IMG/VR virus record: IMGVR_UViG_3300008107_000017
Coordinates: 32,001-96,000 of that record
Length of the DNA stretch: 64,000 nucleotides
Reading direction: 5' to 3' (one strand)
Origin: a virus
Of this stretch, positions 2,643 to 40,846 are shown one piece after another. The notes beneath the pieces are model-generated. The model saw only the letters and a list, made by a program, of their open reading frames with translations, did no database searches and had not been told where the DNA came from. The first letter of the stretch is position 1. The number at the start of each line of letters is the position of its first letter. Both the position numbers and the translations under genes were made by a program.

Positions 2643-3623
2643 ATGTCTGCTTATAACCAGGAATTTAATAAAGACAACACAATATTACGATATGTAACTG
2701 TAGCTACTCTTGCTGAATTAAGAAATAAAGTTTACTATTATAATCAGATTGATGAGGATACTGTACAAAAGGTAAATGTACCTTTCTATTATTCTGTTAC
2801 GGGTGATGATCGGTTTCTGGCAGATAACTTCTTATATGATGCTATTGCAGAAGGTAAAGCTATAGGAGATTATGAAGTTGTACCAAGAGGTGTACTTCAA
2901 TTAAATTCTCTTTCAATTGATTCAGGCGCCCAGACAAATAAATTTATTAGAGGTGAATTTGTCAGAGAGTGGAACGGCGTCTTAAAAAGATTTTCACTAG
3001 AGACAAACTTTTTACCTCTTACTATGACATTTGGAGTAACTGTTGTTTGTTCCAATAATCTTGAAATGTTAAAGGTTACCGAATCAATTTTATCAAAACT
3101 CTATAAGACAACTCTTTATAGTGTTGATTTAGGTATGACAAGAGTTCAGGCTGGTATGTCAGTTCCTGAAGACTATAGCCAAGATCGTCTCTTTGAATTT
3201 GCCCTTAACGATAAGAAAGAATTTAATGTAACCTTTGATTTGGAAGTTAAATCATTTATGCCATGTTTTGAAAATGGTGTTCTCTTATCAGAGGTTGATC
3301 TAATAGCCAGAGATTCAATTCAGAGTAACCCTGATGCCGAAGGTGTTGGTCTATTTAGAACTGGACCAAATGGAGATATTGGAATATCATTTGGTGGTGT
3401 ATTCCAGAAATTTGAATACACAATTGATAACATTGCAAAGATTGCTCCAGAAAATGTATTATCCAATAAGCAGTATGTTAATCCTTCTGATATTAATCGT
3501 GGAGGACCTTATATAGAAACTGAAACGACTTCTGCCAACTTTGACTTTGATGCTAAAAAATATGATGATTTAGAGGCACCAGAGAGTAAAGAATACAGAA
3601 ATGCAGAAGATGACGAAGGATAA
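2643..3623 (+). CDS. Tail terminator/sheath stabilizer (gp15-like)
   Basis: KVNVPFYY...RFL and VVPRG...SID pattern resembles T4-like gp15 proteins; structural-gene context. Confidence 0.6.
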   Translation: MSAYNQEFNKDNTILRYVTVATLAELRNKVYYYNQIDEDTVQKVNVPFYYSVTGDDRFLADNFLYDAIAEGKAIGDYEVVPRGVLQLNSLSIDSGAQTNKFIRGEFVREWNGVLKRFSLETNFLPLTMTFGVTVVCSNNLEMLKVTESILSKLYKTTLYSVDLGMTRVQAGMSVPEDYSQDRLFEFALNDKKEFNVTFDLEVKSFMPCFENGVLLSEVDLIARDSIQSNPDAEGVGLFRTGPNGDIGISFGGVFQKFEYTIDNIAKIAPENVLSNKQYVNPSDINRGGPYIETETTSANFDFDAKKYDDLEAPESKEYRNAEDDEG

Positions 3624-3669: not shown

Positions 3670-5499
3670 ATGAGTAAAGCAGTTAATGAAGGACAAACTC
3701 AAGTCTATGCGAATGGTACTATTGAGCCTCAATATGGTGTAAACACTGATGCTCCGTATCTAAATAATCCCCCAAAGCAATTGATTGATCTTATTACCGC
3801 ATTTTATAAAAGTGGTAAATCAGATAGTCAAGTTTTAGCTATTCTTGTAGGAATGGGTACTCCACAACAATTAGCATTATCTGGTATTAATGCATATAAA
3901 GCCGCTGCTCAAACATTCACAACCGAAAACAATCAAAAAAATCATAATAATATGAAATTTACACTTGCAGGCTTGTATGAAAACGTTATGAAAGCCATTA
4001 ATGCATTAAATACGATGGGAGAAGATCAATCACGAGTATCTTATTCCGCAAAAAATGCACTTAACATTTTAGAAAATTCTTTAGGTAATTTTCCAATGAG
4101 ATTCTCTAGCGGAGATATTTCAATAATTAGTGAAGATATTGAAAACAACGTAAACCCCGCTCTTAAATTTAAGATTGCAAAAAATCTTCACAGAGATCTT
4201 GCTGCATCTGAATGGTTAAACCCAGTTAGAGAATTAAGAAGCTATATCATGGCTGCATATGATTCTTCTAAATGGTCATTTAGAATTGCTGAAGCAATCG
4301 ATAGATCAAATTCACAAAAAGGTAAACTATACGAAAGTCTAACCAATCAATTTGAAATTCTTTTAAAAGAATCTTCTGAAGACATTAAATCTAAATTTGC
4401 TATTATTGCTGCAAAGAACCCATGGTCTGCTGAATGTAAAAACATTCTAAACGAAATGGCTTCCTCTGAGCAAAAGGCCTATTCAAATCATGGTGGTAAG
4501 GTTTCTAAAATTCTTTCACCCGTGTTGGAGTCTGAAGAAGGATTAACATTCCACTTACATGGTAAGAACTATATCTTTACCGAAGGTAAGATTTCTGAAA
4601 CTGAAGTAACTGATTCTCGTTTCTTTGATGTTTTAGAAGGTATTAAAATGTTTAAACTTGACGGTAATTCATTAGTTACTTTTTCTGAAAATGGAAAAAC
4701 TTTAGAATATAACCTTACTGAAGGTACATTAAGCTTAGGTGGAGTAGATCTTACCAATGCAAGTATCGTAGAATTAAAGGAATCCCTTATTGCAACAAGA
4801 TTCTTTGGTTATAGAGATCAGTGGAAATCTGATACTGTATGTAAATTCTTTGAGAATGTAGATCTTTTACATGAAATGGATAATTTCACTGGAATTACTT
4901 CTACTGAATTCTTAAATCTTTTCTTAACTGTAATTGCTGTTGAGGAAGGTGTATGGGTTAATAAAGTTAACTTTGGAATGCAGGTAAATGAAATGAAATT
5001 CTATTCATCTGCAACTGAAGCTGTTAAGATGATTAAAGAATTCATTAATTATGATGCATCATCTATTCTTTCTGAAAGATTAGTGGCTGAAGGTAATCAA
5101 AAAGCAGTTGCTGATAAAAAGAGAAATGAAATCAATGATAAAATTTCTTTCTTAGAAGAGAAGAAGAATAAGGTATCTGAAGCAATCAAATCATTAGGAG
5201 ATTCTGAAGAATTACAGGAAGCATTAAAATTAATCAATACCGAAATCATTAAGTTTGAAAAAGAACTTCAAGAAACTTATTCTATAGTTGAAAAAAAAAG
5301 TAAAGACCAATATCTAAACGACGGTTATGTTGAAGCAAAAGTTCAAGATAACGTAAATGGATTAAAGAAAGGTCAAACTGTTTTTGTTAATGCAGAAGAA
5401 TATACTTCTTTAGGTGATACTGATTTACTTAATATCATCGTCCCTGAAACCGATAAATCTAAAATCGTAAAGAAGGCAAGCCTTAAGGTTGAAATTTAA
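3670..5499 (+). CDS. Hypothetical late protein, probably virion or prohead core, with C-terminal coiled coil
   Basis: ATG at 3670 follows late motif GAATATATAA (3640). Several [VL]xE sites (AVNEG, LKES, VLES) resemble prohead-protease sites. Confidence 0.5.
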   Translation: MSKAVNEGQTQVYANGTIEPQYGVNTDAPYLNNPPKQLIDLITAFYKSGKSDSQVLAILVGMGTPQQLALSGINAYKAAAQTFTTENNQKNHNNMKFTLAGLYENVMKAINALNTMGEDQSRVSYSAKNALNILENSLGNFPMRFSSGDISIISEDIENNVNPALKFKIAKNLHRDLAASEWLNPVRELRSYIMAAYDSSKWSFRIAEAIDRSNSQKGKLYESLTNQFEILLKESSEDIKSKFAIIAAKNPWSAECKNILNEMASSEQKAYSNHGGKVSKILSPVLESEEGLTFHLHGKNYIFTEGKISETEVTDSRFFDVLEGIKMFKLDGNSLVTFSENGKTLEYNLTEGTLSLGGVDLTNASIVELKESLIATRFFGYRDQWKSDTVCKFFENVDLLHEMDNFTGITSTEFLNLFLTVIAVEEGVWVNKVNFGMQVNEMKFYSSATEAVKMIKEFINYDASSILSERLVAEGNQKAVADKKRNEINDKISFLEEKKNKVSEAIKSLGDSEELQEALKLINTEIIKFEKELQETYSIVEKKSKDQYLNDGYVEAKVQDNVNGLKKGQTVFVNAEEYTSLGDTDLLNIIVPETDKSKIVKKASLKVEI

Positions 5500-5520
5500 T
5501 CGCTAACCTTTATATAAAAA

Positions 5521-5548
5521 GCTGACAGGTAAACTGTCGGCTTTTTTT
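5521..5548 (+). terminator. Intrinsic terminator, overlapping an AAAC-N16-ATATAA promoter motif for gp55
   Basis: GCTGACAG-gtaaa-CTGTCGGC followed by T7. Confidence 0.75.
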
Positions 5549-5951: not shown

Positions 5952-6428
5952 ATGAGTATAAAGAATGTCAAACCTACGGCTAAATCAGGATTTAAACAAG
6001 GTTATTATAAACCACACAATCCTCATAAGTATATAGGACCAGGGCCTATCATATACAGAAGCTCGTGGGAAAGAAAATTCTGTCATTGGTGTGATCATAA
6101 TGAAAATGTAATTAGCTGGGTGTCTGAACCTTTTTCAATAAAATACTTTAATGTTTTGGATAATAAGTTTCATAACTATTATCCAGACTTTTATGTAAAA
6201 ATGAATAAAGAGGGTTTGGTTGAAGAATATGTGGTAGAGATAAAGCCAAAAGAACAATTAAAGAAACCATCTCCACCAAAAAGAAATACCAAAAAAGCAA
6301 TAGATAACTTTAAGTATGCCTATGAAACGTATGTTAGAAATCTTTGCAAAACAGATGCTCTTAATAAAGCTGCAACTCAAAGAAATTTTAAGGTTATGTT
6401 ATTAACCGAAGACTCAAATCTTTTTTAG
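5952..6428 (+). CDS. gp4: Head completion nuclease (gp4, TnsA-like)
   Basis: YKPHNPHKYIG, IIYRSSWE, YYPDF and VEIKP motifs. Confidence 0.9.
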   Translation: MSIKNVKPTAKSGFKQGYYKPHNPHKYIGPGPIIYRSSWERKFCHWCDHNENVISWVSEPFSIKYFNVLDNKFHNYYPDFYVKMNKEGLVEEYVVEIKPKEQLKKPSPPKRNTKKAIDNFKYAYETYVRNLCKTDALNKAATQRNFKVMLLTEDSNLF

Positions 6429-35371: not shown

Positions 35372-36166
35372 ATGGATAAGAGTATTGTTTGGTTTGATTT
35401 AGAAACTACTGGTGTTAACACAGCAACAGATAGGATTATTGAGATCTGTATGATCAAAACTGATTTTGAAGGTAATGAGATCTCATCTTTTTATACACTC
35501 GTAAATCCTGGGCCTGGTATTGAATGGCGCCAAGAAGCGATTGATAAACATGGAATCACACCAGATATGCTCGAAGACCAGGATAGGTTTGAATATATTG
35601 CCAAAGAAGTTATGGACTTTATAGGTGATAGCGACCTCGGTGGTTATAATGCACTTTACTTTGATATCCCAATGCTTACTGAAGAATTTATGCGAGCTGG
35701 TCTTGTATTTAATCCTCGCGGTAAGGCCGTTATTGATCCGTTCCTAATCTATTCTAAATACGAAAGACGAGATCTTAGTACTGCATATACCAAGTACACA
35801 GGTAAAACTTTAGATGGTGCACACCGTGCAGAAGCAGATATTCGTGCAACAATGGAAATCTTCCAGGCACAACGTAAACTATATGATATGCCAGGATCTG
35901 CTGCCGAAATTGACCAAGCGGTTAATGAGTCTCGTCAAACGCAAGTTGACCTAAGCGGTAAGTTTAAGTTTGCCGAAATTAACGGGAAAAAAGAAATCAT
36001 CTTTAATTTTGGAAAATGGGCAGGTAAACCTTTTAAAGAAGTTTATGAAGCAGATTCCAGATATATTGAATGGATGATTGATAAAGGTGAATTTGCAAAA
36101 GAAACCAAAATCATTGCAAGAAAGCTTATAGAAAAGTTAAAGGCAGAGTCTCCAATGCCATTCTAA
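35372..36166 (+). CDS. DEDDh 3'-5' exonuclease (DNA Pol III epsilon-like)
   Basis: FDLETTG, GYN...FD, AHRAEAD and C-terminal FNFGKWAG. Confidence 0.88.
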   Translation: MDKSIVWFDLETTGVNTATDRIIEICMIKTDFEGNEISSFYTLVNPGPGIEWRQEAIDKHGITPDMLEDQDRFEYIAKEVMDFIGDSDLGGYNALYFDIPMLTEEFMRAGLVFNPRGKAVIDPFLIYSKYERRDLSTAYTKYTGKTLDGAHRAEADIRATMEIFQAQRKLYDMPGSAAEIDQAVNESRQTQVDLSGKFKFAEINGKKEIIFNFGKWAGKPFKEVYEADSRYIEWMIDKGEFAKETKIIARKLIEKLKAESPMPF

Positions 36167-36698: not shown

Positions 36699-36997
36699 AA
36701 ATAGAAATTGAAAAACTCAAACAGATTGAAAATGCCTTAGGGCAATTCGAGGTATGCCGTATCTTTGGTGGCGGTAATCATAATTACCTTCGCTTTGGGT
36801 ATTGGAGACCAACAGATTGGAAAACTCTTCAAGAAATCCTTGGTCATTCTATTGTGGTAGAAGAAGATTCTGACTATGATGATGACTGTGGGTGGAAGTA
36901 TTCCTATGTTCTATATGATCGTATGGAATGGGATATGATTCAAAAGAATCGCCGCGAACAAATGGAATCTTGGAGAGCTCCAGTAAACAATCGTTAA
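36695..36997 (+). CDS. Hypothetical protein
   Basis: ORF coupled to the upstream gene by an ATGA overlap. Confidence 0.55.
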   Translation: MKIEIEKLKQIENALGQFEVCRIFGGGNHNYLRFGYWRPTDWKTLQEILGHSIVVEEDSDYDDDCGWKYSYVLYDRMEWDMIQKNRREQMESWRAPVNNR

Positions 36998-37020
36998 CCG
37001 CGATTATATAAATAAAGGTA

Positions 37021-37037
37021 CGTTCTTTAACATATTG
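37021..37037 (+). promoter_or_regulatory. boxA-like antitermination element before the tmRNA
   Basis: CGTTCTTTAACATATTG; near-identical copy at 37839; resembles rrn boxA TGCTCTTTAACA. Confidence 0.65.
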
Positions 37038-37418
37038 GGGGTGACCAGGTTTTGACGATTAAGCTGAAATTAGGTTACTGATGCAAGCAGGGTTAGATGG
37101 AAACCCTTAAACACCTATCGCACAATAAAAGGCGAAGAGAAATCTTCATTCACCTGGGAAGACGCAATGGCTTTCATTGGTGCTGATTACGCTGTAGCAG
37201 CCTAATCAGTCTCGCACTCATCGTGAGATATTAAAAAGAATGAGAATTCAAGGTCTCGTTCAGAGTACTACCTTATAAGTGAACTCGACATAGTTATTGG
37301 TAACGATGTCAAAATAGGAACCATTTATTTTGGCCATTAAGAAAAATGGCCTAAGCTTGTGAATGAGGGATTTAGGTTCCTTAGTCGGACATGGGTTCGA
37401 ATCCCATCACCTCCACCA
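37037..37418 (+). ncRNA. ssrA: tmRNA; tag ORF 37131-37205 = GEEKSSFTWEDAMAFIGADYAVAA
   Basis: GGGGGTG/CACCTCC-ACCA acceptor with G3:U, TTTGAC 5' motif, T-arm GGGTTCGAATCCC, tag ending YAVAA-stop. Confidence 0.93.
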
Positions 37419-37421
37419 AAA

Positions 37422-37478
37422 AGGATGCATACAGCAACTTTGGACTAGACTTGTAAACTACAACCCAATGCATCCTGT
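37422..37478 (+). ncRNA. 57-nt ACAGCAA-motif structured element, copy 1
   Basis: AGGATGCAT/ATGCATCCT stem enclosing ACAGCAA; second copy at 38111. Confidence 0.55.
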
Positions 37479-37482
37479 TTCT

Positions 37483-37555
<73 letters not shown>

Positions 37556-37573
37556 CAAATTCTCACACATGTG

Positions 37574-37600
37574 AAACAAACACAATGTGAGTATATATAA
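37574..37600 (+). promoter_or_regulatory. AAAC-N17-ATATAA promoter motif upstream of the leader ORF
   Basis: Same spaced motif at about 12 sites (see findings). Confidence 0.6.
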
Positions 37601-37621
37601 ATAACAAATAAAACAATTTCA

Positions 37622-37717
37622 ATGCAACTGCACGGATGTACATATTGGATTCTTAGTAATGTGGAAAAGAATTTTCCGCAGGCGGATTCAATTACACCAA
37701 GTCCAGGCAGGAGCTGA
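37622..37717 (+). CDS. Putative attenuator leader peptide MQLHGCTYWILSNVEKNFPQADSITPSPGRS (all 20 amino acids)
   Basis: A-rich leader before the ATG, double stop TGA-TAA, 3' end complementary to the downstream terminator arm. Confidence 0.7.
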   Translation: MQLHGCTYWILSNVEKNFPQADSITPSPGRS

Positions 37718-37740
37718 TAAGATAAAACACTTATAATACT

Positions 37741-37777
37741 AAGCCTCCTGGATAAAAAATTCCGGGAGGCTTTTTTT
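37741..37777 (+). terminator. Intrinsic terminator (putative attenuator) upstream of the tRNA array
   Basis: AAGCCTCCTGGA-taaaaaat-TCCGGGAGGCTT plus T tract. Confidence 0.88.
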
Positions 37778-37786
37778 ATGGGTCTC

Positions 37787-37817
37787 TTTCAGAAAAAGAT
37801 TGAATGAGTTATATTTG
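37787..37817 (+). promoter_or_regulatory. TTTC-N19-TATATTTG host-type promoter for the tRNA array
   Basis: Bacteroidota -7 box TAnnTTTG; same spacing at four other sites. Confidence 0.6.
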
Positions 37818-37838
37818 TTTAGAATAGAATTTCAAATT

Positions 37839-37855
37839 CGTTCTTTGACATATTG
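37839..37855 (+). promoter_or_regulatory. boxA-like element before the tRNA array
   Basis: CGTTCTTTGACATATTG. Confidence 0.65.
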
Positions 37856-37865
37856 AGGTACCAAC

Positions 37866-37951
37866 GGAAAGATGGTAGAGTTGGTTGATTACACCGGTCT
37901 TGAAAACCGGCATACCGCGAGGTATCGGGGGTTCGAATCCCTCTCTTTCCG
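37866..37951 (+). tRNA. tRNA-Ser(TGA)
   Basis: Long variable arm; CCGGT-CTTGAAA-ACCGG. Confidence 0.92.
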
Positions 37952-37959
37952 CTTTAAAT

Positions 37960-38030
37960 TGCCCTCTCGTCTAATGGCAGGACATGTGGTTTTGGTCCAC
38001 AGTGTAGAGGTTCGAATCCTTTGGGGGCAA
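37960..38030 (+). tRNA. tRNA-Gln(TTG)
   Basis: TGTGG-TTTTGGT-CCACA. Confidence 0.9.
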
Positions 38031-38035
38031 CATAT

Positions 38036-38108
38036 AGGGAAGTAGCGCAGTTGGTAGCGCACCTGGTTTGGGACCAGGGGGTCGCAGGTTCGAGCCCTGT
38101 CTTCCCTA
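38036..38108 (+). tRNA. tRNA-Pro(TGG)
   Basis: CCTGG-TTTGGGA-CCAGG. Confidence 0.92.
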
Positions 38109-38110
38109 CA

Positions 38111-38167
38111 AGGATACATACAGCAAATTTTATCAAACTGCAACTTTGAAGCCAAAACGTATCCTGT
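38111..38167 (+). ncRNA. 57-nt ACAGCAA-motif structured element, copy 2
   Basis: AGGATAC/GTATCCT stem with a compensatory change relative to copy 1. Confidence 0.55.
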
Positions 38168-38172
38168 ATTTT

Positions 38173-38245
38173 GCCTCTGTAGCTCAGTTGGTAGAGCTAC
38201 TGATTTGTAATCAGTGGGTCGTAGGTTCGAATCCTATCGGAGGCT
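38173..38245 (+). tRNA. tRNA-Thr(TGT)
   Basis: ACTGA-TTTGTAA-TCAGT. Confidence 0.92.
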
Positions 38246-38257
38246 CAAACATTATTT

Positions 38258-38331
38258 GGTCCGTTCGTCTAATTGGTTAGGACATCTCCCTTTCACGGAG
38301 AAGCTTACGGGTTCGATCCCCGTACGGACTA
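38258..38331 (+). tRNA. tRNA-Glu(TTC)
   Basis: TCTCC-CTTTCAC-GGAGA. Confidence 0.9.
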
Positions 38332-38337
38332 CAACAT

Positions 38338-38412
38338 TGCGGGGTGGACTGGAGATGGTTCCAGCTCGGTCTCATAAGCCGAACCACATGGGTTCGATTC
38401 CCATCCCCGCAA
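38338..38412 (+). tRNA. tRNA-Met(CAT), with initiator-like acceptor stem
   Basis: TGCGGGG/CCCCGCA acceptor; TCGGT-CTCATAA-GCCGA. Confidence 0.85.
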
Positions 38413-38519
38413 CAAAGGTGGTATCTAGACGAAAATGAAATTCCTGCTGTGAAGTCGACTTAATCAGCATATTCAGAAGTAGAAATGAAGGATCGCAAAT
38501 CTTTCGCCACCCTCTTATT

Positions 38520-38596
38520 GGCTCGTTAGTAGAGATGGTTACAATGTCGCCCTGTCACGGCGAAGGTCACGGGTTCGAGTCCCGTACGGGCCGCCA
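38520..38596 (+). tRNA. tRNA-Asp(GTC)
   Basis: TCGCC-CTGTCAC-GGCGA; encoded CCA. Confidence 0.92.
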
Positions 38597-38668
38597 AAAA
38601 ATGCCGAGGTTAATGCATAACCTAAAGTAACACGTACGGTTACACAGTAGGAAGGCTACCTACACTTT

Positions 38669-38742
38669 GGGGGTATAGCTCAGTTGGCTAGAGCATCTGC
38701 CTTGCACGCAGAGGGTCGTGGGTTCGAATCCCTCTACCTCCA
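38669..38742 (+). tRNA. tRNA-Ala(TGC)
   Basis: G3:U70; TCTGC-CTTGCAC-GCAGA. Confidence 0.93.
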
Positions 38743-38746
38743 CTAA

Positions 38747-38819
38747 GATCTCGTAGCTCAGTTGGTAGAGCAATACACTTTTAATGTATGGGCCGCGCGT
38801 TCGAGCCGCGCCGGGATCA
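38747..38819 (+). tRNA. tRNA-Lys(TTT)
   Basis: ATACA-CTTTTAA-TGTAT. Confidence 0.9.
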
Positions 38820-38919
38820 CAAAAAAATCGTACATCATAGTTTTCCCGTTTAGGATGTAGCTATAAGATGTAAATGTGAAAGGCGCAATCACAGTAGGTT
38901 AAGCGATATCCTACAACTT

Positions 38920-39000
38920 GCCGAAGTGGTGGAATGGTATACACGCTGGTCTTAGGAACCAGTGCCTAACGGCTTAAGGGTTCGAGTCCCTTCTTCGGTA
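38920..39000 (+). tRNA. tRNA-Leu(TAG)
   Basis: CTGGT-CTTAGGA-ACCAG; long variable arm. Confidence 0.92.
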
Positions 39001-39005
39001 CTAAT

Positions 39006-39080
39006 GCACCCTTAGCTCAGTGGGAGAGCATCTGCCTTACATGCAGAGGGTCGGTGGTTCGAAACCATCAGGGTGCACCA
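39006..39080 (+). tRNA. tRNA-Val(TAC)
   Basis: TCTGC-CTTACAT-GCAGA; encoded CCA. Confidence 0.92.
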
Positions 39081-39202
39081 AGAGAGATAGTGAAGCTGTA
39101 TGATATGGTCTTAATCCCGCTGACTGTCAAAAAGGCATTAGGAGATTCAGATGTGTTGATTATATCACAGAATGCCCGAAAGACCCGAAGTCTCTCTTTT
39201 AT

Positions 39203-39285
39203 TGGAAGGTGGGTGAGTGGTTAAAACCGGCAGACTGTAAATCTGCTCTCTTCGGAGTACGGCGGTTCGAATCCGTCCCTTCCAA
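39203..39285 (+). tRNA. tRNA-Tyr(GTA)
   Basis: GCAGA-CTGTAAA-TCTGC; long variable arm. Confidence 0.92.
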
Positions 39286-39290
39286 CATTT

Positions 39291-39364
39291 GGACCTTTAG
39301 CTCAGTTGGTTAGAGCATCGGACTCATAATCCGCAGGTCGCAGGTTCGAGCCCTGCAAGGTCCA
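39291..39364 (+). tRNA. tRNA(CAT), probably Ile2 (lysidine) rather than Met
   Basis: GGACCTTTAGCTCAG body and GACTCATAATC arm resemble bacterial Ile2. Confidence 0.8.
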
Positions 39365-39369
39365 CATTT

Positions 39370-39442
39370 AGTCGATTAGTTCAATTGGATAGAACACTTG
39401 ACTACGGATCAAGAGATAAGGGTTCGAGTCCTTTATTGACTA
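39370..39442 (+). tRNA. tRNA-Arg(ACG)
   Basis: CTTGA-CTACGGA-TCAAG. Confidence 0.9.
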
Positions 39443-39447
39443 CTAAT

Positions 39448-39520
39448 GGTGATGTAGCTCAGTTGGTAGAGCAAAGGACTGAAAATCCTTGTGTCGGCGG
39501 TTCGATTCCGTCCATCACCA
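39448..39520 (+). tRNA. tRNA-Phe(GAA)
   Basis: AAGGA-CTGAAAA-TCCTT. Confidence 0.93.
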
Positions 39521-39603
39521 CTAAGTAATAGGTAAGCATCTAAGGGGTCTCCTATGTAATATTAGGGCGTGTCTAACCCAAAGCCTCTGCTTATTACTTT
39601 TAT

Positions 39604-39675
39604 TCCTCGGTAGCTCAGAGGCAGAGCACATGACTGTTAATCATGGGGTCGGGATATCGTAATTCCCCCGGGGAG
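39604..39675 (+). tRNA. tRNA-Asn(GTT) with atypical T-loop
   Basis: CATGA-CTGTTAA-TCATG; T-arm reads GGGATATCGTAATTCCC. Confidence 0.8.
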
Positions 39676-39733
39676 CAAAAACGCTTAATAGAACAAAGTA
39701 CAAGTTCAGAACAGGGTGCGGGTCCTGTGACAT

Positions 39734-39807
39734 TGGAATATAGCTCAGTTGGTTAGAGCATTCGTCTGATACGCGAAGGGTCGGCAGTTCGAGTCTGCCT
39801 ATTCCAA
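39734..39807 (+). tRNA. tRNA-Ile(GAT)
   Basis: TTCGT-CTGATAC-GCGAA. Confidence 0.9.
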
Positions 39808-39812
39808 CACAT

Positions 39813-39887
39813 GGTGGTTATAGCTCAGTTGGTTAGAGCATCTGATTGTGGTTCAGAAGGTCGTGGGTTCGACTCCCATTAATCACC
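39813..39887 (+). tRNA. tRNA-His(GTG)
   Basis: G-1:C73; TCTGA-TTGTGGT-TCAGA. Confidence 0.92.
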
Positions 39888-39893
39888 CATAAT

Positions 39894-39964
39894 GGCACTA
39901 TGGCCGAGTGGTTAGGTGGAGGTCTGCAAAACCTTTCACACAGGTTCGATTCCTGTTGGTGCCT
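39894..39964 (+). tRNA. tRNA-Cys(GCA)
   Basis: GAGGT-CTGCAAA-ACCTT; U73. Confidence 0.9.
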
Positions 39965-39972
39965 CAATAAAT

Positions 39973-40045
39973 GCGTCTGTAGCTCAGTTGGTAGAGCACT
40001 GGTCTCCAAAACCAGGTGTCGGTGGTTCGAACCCATCCAGGCGTG
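39973..40045 (+). tRNA. tRNA-Trp(CCA)
   Basis: CTGGT-CTCCAAA-ACCAG. Confidence 0.92.
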
Positions 40046-40062
40046 CGAAATACATAAAATGA

Positions 40063-40512
40063 ATGAAGGTGTTTAGAAAGACAAATGGAGTCAAGGTTAA
40101 TGTGATAGATCACACCCTCGAGCAGTTAAAGAATTATCCTCATGCATCGATTCACATTGGAACCGATTCACAAAATCATGGTGATGTAACTATGTATAGC
40201 ACAGTGATAGCATATCGCTTTGGATCATCAGGTGTACATTATATTTTTACTAAACATAAAATGCCAAAGATCACTGATATGTGGACACGTCTTTGGAAAG
40301 AAGCCGAGATGAGTATTGAAACCGCTGAATGGCTTACACAACAGATTAATGTTAAGGTTCAAATTGATATGGACTATAACGGAGATGAAGAACACAAATC
40401 ATATAGAATTATTTCTGCGGCTAAAGGGTGGGCAAATTCTCTGGGCTATAAAGTAAATGTAAAACCTAACGAGCAAATTGCAACTCGTGCAGCTGATTAT
40501 TGCTGTAGATAA
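40063..40512 (+). CDS. RNase H-like YkuK/DUF458 family protein
   Basis: IHIGTDSQ, RLWKEAEMS, IDMDYN and ATRAAD. Confidence 0.8.
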   Translation: MKVFRKTNGVKVNVIDHTLEQLKNYPHASIHIGTDSQNHGDVTMYSTVIAYRFGSSGVHYIFTKHKMPKITDMWTRLWKEAEMSIETAEWLTQQINVKVQIDMDYNGDEEHKSYRIISAAKGWANSLGYKVNVKPNEQIATRAADYCCR

Positions 40513-40513
40513 A

Positions 40514-40598
40514 GGAAGGTTACCCAAGTGGTGAAGGGGGCAGTTTGCTAAACTGTTAGGTCGGCAACGGCGCGAGGGTTCGATCCCCTCACCTTCCG
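40514..40598 (+). tRNA. tRNA-Ser(GCT)
   Basis: GCAGT-TTGCTAA-ACTGT; long variable arm. Confidence 0.92.
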
Positions 40599-40648
40599 CT
40601 CTTTCAGAAATCATATCTATGTATTATATTTGAATAAATAGTTTAGGT

Positions 40649-40846
40649 ATGAAAAAGGATTTTATTTGGGTACGCAGGGTTATCCTAAACAAAGACAACA
40701 AGACCGTTCATTACGAGTCTTTGGTTAAACTTATTCATTTGTTTTCAGCAAAATGGAAACATAATGAAAAAGATCCACGATTTAGGGAAGCCTATAATTC
40801 ATATAAAGCCTTTCTGAAACTTACACTTAGACATCAATATAATTAA
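40649..40846 (+). CDS. Hypothetical protein
   Basis: ORF after a TTTC-N19-TATATTTG motif (40602-40632). Confidence 0.5.
   Translation: MKKDFIWVRRVILNKDNKTVHYESLVKLIHLFSAKWKHNEKDPRFREAYNSYKAFLKLTLRHQYN

Follow-up and report, generated by a model that had tools for sequence, protein, structure and literature searches.

A predicted ribosome-dependent attenuator with an all-amino-acid leader peptide before a phage tRNA array

In a 64,000-nucleotide stretch of viral DNA (hereafter designated the window; bases 32001–96000 of the 139.8-kb IMG/VR virus record IMGVR_UViG_3300008107_000017), we found that a short open reading frame (ORF) encoding all 20 amino acids and an intrinsic terminator lie directly in front of an array of tRNA genes. 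A preliminary description of the window, made from the letters alone, had interpreted this arrangement as a translational attenuator of the tRNA array; the interpretation is supported computationally, in that every one of its proposed computational tests that was run came out in favour. From the sequence, we consider it probable (about 0.7) that the element is a ribosome-dependent leader-peptide transcription attenuator that stands before a complete tRNA array and senses overall decoding.

The composition described for the leader ORF was reproduced in full, with 31 codons, 20 kinds of amino acid, 19 of these kinds within the first 22 codons, 16 initial codons that are all distinct, and 26 distinct codons altogether. 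Among the 31,945 stop-free 31-residue windows in the six frames, it is the most diverse and the sole one that contains all 20 amino acids; random 31-mers average 14.9 kinds and hold all 20 with a probability of 1.4e-4 to 3.5e-4. Some all-20 window occurs in 58% of Markov-random 64-kb sequences, and the single ORF is by itself weak evidence, because 3% of such sequences hold a complete all-20 ORF of ≤35 residues and because post-hoc picking is possible. In the 724 kb of fetched loci, only 1 unrelated ORF (43 residues) among 5181 short ORFs contained all 20 amino acids. It is the comparative sequence data, not the lone instance, that argue strongly for an ORF above the chance level. Moreover, the G-ending codons of the leader, which had been suspected of being uncommon, indeed have relative synonymous codon usage (RSCU) values of 0.2–0.3 in the phage, and the mean RSCU of the leader (1.06–1.15; 1.11 in the window) falls below the 1st percentile of gene codons, indicating the use of rare codons.

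Relatives were searched for by means of the neighbouring exonuclease gene, the promoter-like motif upstream of the ORF, a profile of the peptide, and the pair formed by the ORF end (region 2, see below) and the terminator. Six lineages carry the element: A (the window and L001–3; 31 codons, 20 kinds), B (L004, L006, and others; 31 codons, 20 kinds), C (L010; 31 codons, 20 kinds), D (L022, equal to L030; 34 codons, 20 kinds), E (L096 and L097; 31 codons, 19 kinds, without Cys), and F (L219, positions 4552–4727; 32 codons, 18 kinds, without Cys and Lys). Lineage D is the most diverged, its exonuclease being only 68% identical and its 28 tRNAs standing in a different order, and lineage F has 26 tRNAs. 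A diverse in-frame ORF followed by a terminator, which the preliminary description had proposed to look for upstream of related arrays, is retained directly before the tRNA arrays in all six lineages. The start, the frame, and the stop of the ORF are likewise kept in 6/6, with lengths that differ by whole codons, and the flanks show other insertions and deletions. The element is absent from L011 and L012, which have tmRNA and one tRNA, and from L018, which has seven tRNAs.

Scans of viral and metagenome contigs for the promoter followed by ATGCAR, and TYW-anchored scans, gave only chance matches to coding DNA beyond the known lineages (L027, L032, L034, and L040–L088 except the family members), and a pattern scan for the promoter plus boxA recovered lineages A and B only. 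Five further candidates (L220, L221, L223, L224, and L228) were rejected as chance matches. One match of the profile search, P0005, is a 125-residue protein with two leader-like repeats. A short metagenome scaffold (L098:1–954) carries a lineage-A element with an Ala21Val replacement (19 kinds); its 5′ part is unrelated, asparagine-synthase-like, and fused in frame, and the scaffold is probably an assembly chimera. Between terminator and array, lineage D has a 117-nt unit repeated in tandem 2.7 times (L022:12408–12724), in each copy of which one part resembles a promoter and another boxA. A further stretch of about 250 nt beyond the repeats (L022:12870–13130) resembles a tRNA at its 3′ end and has zero Rfam family matches. 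In lineage F, about 100 nt of GC-rich hairpins separate boxA from the first tRNA.

Comparison of the lineages points to the feature of the leader that is conserved. Only 10 of the 31 positions are invariant across lineages A–E. The ratio of nonsynonymous to synonymous substitution rates (dN/dS) of the leader is about 0.3–0.5 (0.16–0.9) versus 0.07 for the neighbouring exonuclease, which argues, from the sequences, that the peptide is weakly constrained although the ORF is retained. Among close leader variants, the changes are confined to third codon positions. The dS itself is lower in the leader (37622–37714; 0.2–0.4) than in the exonuclease (35372–36163; 0.5–1.3), as would be expected if RNA structure also limits the third codon positions. 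The kinds of amino acid retained in lineages A–F number 20, 20, 20, 20, 19, and 18, as against the random mean given above, and are kept by compensating replacements, so that the comparison of diversity suggested in the preliminary description turned out in its favour. Thus, lineage C has lost Lys16 and Phe18 and carries Lys at position 17 and Phe at position 24 instead; lineages C and E differ at 14 residues, with each of Tyr, Glu, Val, Ala, and Phe standing at a new position. In simulations, the probability of keeping all 20 kinds was 0.035 for lineage C and, with eight homologous residues held fixed, 0.003 for lineage D, and that of keeping at least 19 kinds was 0.06 for lineage E. Coverage of the amino acids itself, rather than the peptide sequence, appears to be under selection.

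The RNA of the element contains four segments with alternative pairings, namely, region 1 (codons 1–5), region 2 (the last five codons), and regions 3 and 4 (the 5′ and 3′ arms of the terminator). The terminator, which had been called strong, has a 12-pair stem and a run of 7 T with a calculated energy of −21.9 kcal/mol; across the lineages the energy is −17 to −22 kcal/mol, 100% of the alignment cells are paired with 3 compensated pairs, and the stem begins 22–26 nt past the stop codon in 5/5 lineages measured. The proposed pairing of the ORF end with the terminator arm was recovered as a duplex of TCCAGG(C)AGG with CCTCCTGGA (−14.1 kcal/mol; shuffle p = 0.006). The duplex of regions 2 and 3 has about −14 kcal/mol and shuffle p values of 0.006–0.02 across the lineages (−10.3 kcal/mol in lineage D), and region 2 is invariant in lineages A–C, synonymous sites included. 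As to covariation of the antiterminator, the register itself stood, with 97–98% of the cells paired, but the covariation amounted to one coordinated change only, in lineage D, where one position is altered together in regions 2, 3, and 4.

The ORF region also folds as a long hairpin that pairs codons 1–5 with codons 27–31 (z = −3.8, −4.7, and −2.25 in lineages A, B, and C, respectively), and lineages E and F show a compensatory change of G:C to A:U in the region 1 stem. In the eight distinct sequences, 86% of the cells of the ORF hairpin plus terminator are paired and 10 pairs are changed on both sides; their covariation is 0.246 versus 0.176 in shuffles (reached in 0/500), and slid controls gave ≤0.09. 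When a ribosome footprint was imposed in silico on the nascent transcript, the masking logic of the preliminary description was reproduced. The probability of the pairing between regions 2 and 3 was 0.5–0.9 with the A site at codons up to about 23 and dropped to 0.01–0.17 with the ribosome at the final codons or stop in lineages A, B, C, and D, the drop being less clear in lineage E. In this model, antiterminator and terminator cannot coexist, and a ribosome that has reached the ORF end covers the antiterminator.

The content of the leader was further compared with the tRNA genes that follow it. In the window, 27 of the 30 leader codons are cognate to phage tRNAs, versus an expected fraction of 0.72 (p = 0.015). 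A related family, G (L222, L225, L226 at 2171–2345, and L227 at 5352–5526), was found by a pattern scan for boxA next to a terminator. Its members have a comparable box upstream, a 32-codon ORF with 13 kinds of amino acid, a terminator, and boxA immediately after it, and precede Cys, Thr, Gln, Pro, Leu, Glu, Tyr, and Phe tRNAs, together with Met in L227 (8–9 kinds). The family G leader contains every amino-acid kind of its array, Tyr, Leu, and Glu are over-represented in both, and its codons TTA, CTT, and CTA match the tRNAs Leu-TAA, Leu-GAG, and Leu-TAG; altogether, 21 of 31 leader codons are cognate versus a background of 0.39 (p = 0.001). The cultured Cellulophaga phage phi4:1 (L089, NC_021788.1) has three promoter–ORF–terminator modules, two of them with an identical promoter-like stretch, each before a different block of tRNAs (Table 1), and the table of leader codons by tRNA block gave a chi-square of 32.4 (p = 1.6e-6).

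The modules of family G and phi4:1 resemble that of the window in consisting of promoter, short ORF, terminator (with boxA next in family G), and tRNAs, and in an ORF 3′ end that mimics the 3′ arm of the terminator. They differ in that the match of their leaders is limited to the 5–9 amino-acid kinds of their own block, whereas the leader of the window serves a complete array. Because the leaders of family G and phi4:1 match their own tRNA blocks, leader content is taken, on sequence grounds, to follow the downstream tRNA set, the leader of the window being the all-in-one case for a complete array.

The positions of the features are collected in Table 1. The order in the locus is a TATAAATA box with a boxA-like motif, tmRNA, tRNA-Gly, a hairpin, the promoter-like motif, the ORF, a 23-nt spacer, the terminator, a promoter-like site, boxA, and 21 tRNAs, and the region is flanked by the exonuclease gene and a topoisomerase gene. 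The tRNAs of the phage (array and tRNA-Gly) cover all 20 amino acids. The genes of the window are a T4-like myovirus set (portal, major head protein, terminase, tail sheath, topoisomerase II large subunit, and SbcC-like nuclease), and the source is most likely an uncultured T4-like phage of Bacteroidota. The tmRNA of the window encodes a 24-residue tag, and those of the relatives L010, L011, and L018 encode 9-residue tags. No T-box or other leader family was significant in an Rfam scan over 36900–40800, the hits to the leader being only sub-threshold and attributable to chance, and a BLAST search of the leader spacer against 50,697 phage records gave zero matches.

Table 1 Features of the leader and tRNA region in the window and modules of Cellulophaga phage phi4:1 (L089)
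Feature	Position	Strand	Details and basis
TATAAATA box, followed 8 nt later by boxA variant GTTCTTTAACATATTGG	37007–37014 (box); 37022–37038 (boxA variant)	+	Upstream of tmRNA; sequence
tmRNA	37037–37418	+	ARAGORN, Rfam
tRNA-Gly	37483–37556	+	ARAGORN, Rfam
Hairpin directly upstream of TATA-like box	37562–37591	+	Folding
Promoter-like motif	37571–37603	+	GTGAAACAA, 12 nt, TATATATAAATA; contains TATAAATA; conservation
Leader ORF	37622–37717 (ATG 37622, TGA 37715–37717)	+	31 codons + TGA, all 20 amino acids; reading-frame conservation
Region 1 (codons 1–5)	37624–37637	+	Outer stem of ORF hairpin with region 2; fold z-scores, compensatory change
Inner ORF hairpins	37644–37692	+	Possible pause hairpin; folding, covariation
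Region 2 (last five codons)	37701–37714	+	Core TCCAGGCAGG, antiterminator 5′ half; duplex, conservation
Intrinsic terminator	37741–37777	+	Region 3 (5′ arm) 37741–37752; region 4 (3′ arm) 37761–37772; T-run 37771–37777
Host-type promoter-like site	37788–37817	+	TTCAGA, 16 nt, TATATT; TATATTTG at 37810–37817; consensus scan
boxA	37840–37855	+	GTTCTTTGACATATTG, rRNA-type antitermination box; exact database matches
tRNA array (21 genes)	37866–40599	+	ARAGORN, Rfam
phi4:1 module 1	3378–3499 (L089)		Run QRLHLQELEQP; precedes Pro, Glu, Gln, His, Leu, Leu, Arg tRNAs
phi4:1 module 2	4338–4476 (L089)		Rich in T, K, G, I, V, D, A, R; precedes Ala, Lys, Ile, Gly, Met, Asp, Thr, Val, Arg, Met tRNAs; overlaps annotated gp075, GTG start assumed
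phi4:1 module 3	6084–6232 (L089)		Contains NYCTYNNSNWSFSY; precedes Tyr, Ser, Asn, Trp, Phe tRNAs

The promoter motif reported upstream of the ORF proved to be a conserved promoter-like motif, unique in the window and 83% identical to that of the diverged lineage D, but it resembles a T4-type late promoter rather than a host promoter. It contains TATAAATA, the T4 late-promoter consensus, which also occurs upstream of tmRNA and of ORF 30939 (as the box ATATAAATAA). The recurrence of the box at these sites suggests T4-type late promoters, although its 9 occurrences in the window, against 11 expected, show no enrichment. A hairpin just before the TATA-like box is present in every lineage (window, L001, L006, L010, L096, and L022), with differing stems and energies of −4 to −13 kcal/mol (−7 to −13 kcal/mol in lineages A, B, C, and E, weaker in lineage D); it could act as an operator or in the processing or stabilization of transcripts coming from upstream.

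Downstream of the terminator, the host-type promoter that had been raised as a caveat corresponds to a promoter-like site conserved in lineages A, B, C, and E. The site is absent in lineage F and family G, where boxA lies within 1–2 nt of the terminator; because there is no room for a second promoter before boxA, the attenuator module would be the gate to the tRNAs in these two groups. The boxA itself, conserved in all lineages, was confirmed by the occurrence of an identical 17-mer in >120 Bacteroidota genomes, including a copy in Pedobacter hartonius between the spacer tRNAs and 23S. It is predicted to be an rRNA-type boxA antitermination site, and its occurrence in these genomes points to a Bacteroidota host.

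The predicted switch would operate as follows. The transcript would start at the conserved TATAAATA-containing motif and carry the 31-codon ORF, the end of which (region 2) is able by its sequence to pair with either region 1 or region 3. With fast decoding, the ribosome would have reached the last codons or the stop, and would cover region 2, by the time the polymerase makes regions 3 and 4; the terminator would then form and transcription would stop. A delay at any codon would leave region 2 free to pair with region 3, no terminator would form, and the polymerase would continue past boxA into the tRNAs. Because the leader holds every amino acid, a shortage of almost any charged tRNA, caused by starvation or by a tRNA-cleaving host defence, would increase transcription of the whole tRNA set. 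In the window, such read-through would add to transcription from the separate host-type promoter, and, should the upstream motif prove to be a late promoter, the switch would have its greatest effect in the late phase of infection.

Several observations weigh against this interpretation. Coverage is not strict, since lineage E lacks Cys, lineage F lacks Cys and Lys despite having both tRNAs in its array, and the L098 element has lost Ala21. No all-20 short ORF was present upstream of six other phage arrays (phiWae14, Direpillow8, S-H68, CM1, and two huge uncultured phages), a survey in which block-matched leaders were not screened for. The own tRNAs of the phage do not read GGA, CTT, and AGG under strict wobble. 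The sole Arg codon lies within the antiterminator, as the preliminary description had cautioned, and one Gly codon is there too; a stall at these codons of region 2 would mask the antiterminator, and in lineages C, D, and E some amino-acid kinds are found only at codons 24–30. As for the RNA, the antiterminator covariation comes from one lineage and is reached by 66/500 shuffles, the pairing being otherwise merely conserved; lineage D has no significant ORF hairpin (z = −0.6); and equilibrium folding without a ribosome places the pairings of region 2 with region 1 and with region 3 within about 1 kcal/mol. The conserved promoter-like site between the terminator and boxA (window, B, C, and E) means that the attenuator is not the sole route to the tRNAs. 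Finally, RNA-library contigs from two studies, which span the ORF and terminator (37503–37830 and 37630–37954) and give a weak hint of transcription across the leader, carry no information on strand, ends, or regulation. Gaps in the coverage of these contigs were not counted as evidence. In one run, the word depth of the contigs was about 100–200 over tmRNA versus about 6 over the leader; coverage of the tRNAs was likewise deeper than that of the leader.

Other explanations account for parts of these data. The element might be a stand-alone small gene or small RNA, whose transcript of about 170 nt yields a 31-residue peptide or structured RNA acting in trans, with its adjacency to the tRNAs incidental. 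The unit is indeed self-contained, having its own promoter-like motif and strong terminator, its ORF region folds significantly in lineages A–C, and trans-acting products of attenuators (peTrpL/rnTrpL) are known. We regard this as unlikely, as the peptide sequence is nearly free to evolve while its composition is kept, the place directly before tRNA arrays is constant in six lineages with otherwise different neighbours, and leader content matches the tRNA set in family G and phi4:1; a product acting in trans would, moreover, be compatible with attenuation in cis.

Alternatively, the terminator could be controlled by a structured RNA that acts in cis as a receptor for a protein, tRNA, or metabolite, the open frame being incidental. 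Although the covarying hairpin across the ORF and the stronger constraint on synonymous sites than in the neighbouring gene (dS of 0.2–0.4 versus 0.5–1.3) fit such an RNA, it has zero Rfam family matches, T-box included, and would explain neither a frame, start, and stop that are kept with changes in length by whole codons only, nor the persistence of 18–20 amino-acid kinds at shifting positions; lineage D lacks the hairpin and still has the ORF with its coverage. We accordingly give this explanation little credence. Much the same low standing is assigned to a translation-coupled terminator for timing or insulation, which would block late-promoter transcription into the array under normal translation, with coverage being non-adaptive. 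Late transcription is suggested by the TATAAATA motif, the array has a separate promoter, and effects of the distance between ribosome and terminator are general (PMC4824070), but the 18–20-kind coverage and the block-matched leaders of family G and phi4:1 are both left unexplained.

The remaining explanation, that the terminator merely ends a tmRNA/tRNA-Gly unit with a chance frame in its 3′ trailer, draws on the position after tmRNA and tRNA-Gly in lineages A–C, on one RNA contig extending from tRNA-Gly through the ORF, and on the 3% of random 64-kb sequences with an all-20 short ORF, but is largely refuted and highly improbable, because lineages D, E, and F have protein genes in place of tmRNA/tRNA-Gly upstream and yet keep the motif, ORF, and terminator, so that the element is not the tail of a tmRNA operon and a link to tmRNA was rejected, and because the conservation and coverage statistics oppose chance.

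Attenuation is a textbook mechanism, and the predicted attenuator resembles the trpL, hisL, pheL, and multivalent thrL/ilv attenuators in having a short leader ORF, here putatively translated, with an intrinsic terminator, pairings of regions 1 and 2, 2 and 3, and 3 and 4 that exclude one another, and leader codons matched to the supply provided by the genes downstream. In contrast, these attenuators of amino-acid operons regulate biosynthetic enzymes and have leaders with runs of one or a few amino acids, whereas the phage element precedes tRNA genes, has one to four copies of each amino acid, is phage-encoded in a Bacteroidota context, and has an ORF spanning from region 1 to region 2. Genes for aminoacyl-tRNA synthetases are coupled to tRNA charging by transcription attenuation in the pheST operon (pheM leader) and by T-box leaders. 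The pheM leader and T-boxes each sense one amino acid or tRNA, T-boxes by binding tRNA directly in a ribosome-free manner. Here, as predicted for the phage element, genes of the translation apparatus are under transcription attenuation, but the phage element has no T-box match, and its assignment as a T-box riboswitch was rejected because no T-box model matched in the Rfam scan. In the literature, no description was found of attenuation controlling tRNA genes or of an all-amino-acid leader.

Among experimentally studied systems, the closest likeness in predicted working is to the whiB7/wblC genes of Actinobacteria, which have a compositionally diverse upstream ORF (uORF) at which stalling leads to antitermination (PMC10274678). 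Experiments have shown that which amino acids the whiB7 attenuator senses depends on which ones are present in its uORF; the uORF of M. smegmatis has every amino acid but Cys, and loss of its start codon raises basal expression (PMC10274678). The target of whiB7/wblC is, however, a drug-resistance transcription factor, and the uORF is Ala-enriched and variable, whereas the target in the phage is tRNA supply and coverage is apparently selected. Membership in the whiB7/wblC group was rejected, since the downstream genes are tRNAs, the host signals are those of Bacteroidota, and there is no sequence relation. Without translation, the trp leader terminates and whiB7 start-codon mutants read through; either outcome may apply to the phage leader, in which the pairings of region 2 with regions 1 and 3 are near-isoenergetic.

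Why phages carry tRNA arrays, and how the arrays are regulated, are open questions. If the predicted attenuator is real, phage tRNA supply would be feedback-controlled by decoding speed, which would agree with the roles proposed for phage tRNAs in meeting codon demand or in offsetting tRNA-targeting defences, and the leader would provide a small natural sensor of the overall state of translation. The prediction is directly testable, as Cellulophaga phage phi4:1, which has three block-specific versions, and its host are cultured. We lean, with odds somewhat better than even, towards the wider view that Bacteroidota phages gauge the whole decoding capacity of the cell by one checklist leader of all amino acids and switch on the complete tRNA set when any charged tRNA is short, as might happen when demand for protein synthesis is high late in infection or when host defences cleave tRNAs. 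In this view, the leader of the window would be the all-in-one version of codon-matched attenuators that gate phage tRNA blocks and that together would make up a wider class not yet described.

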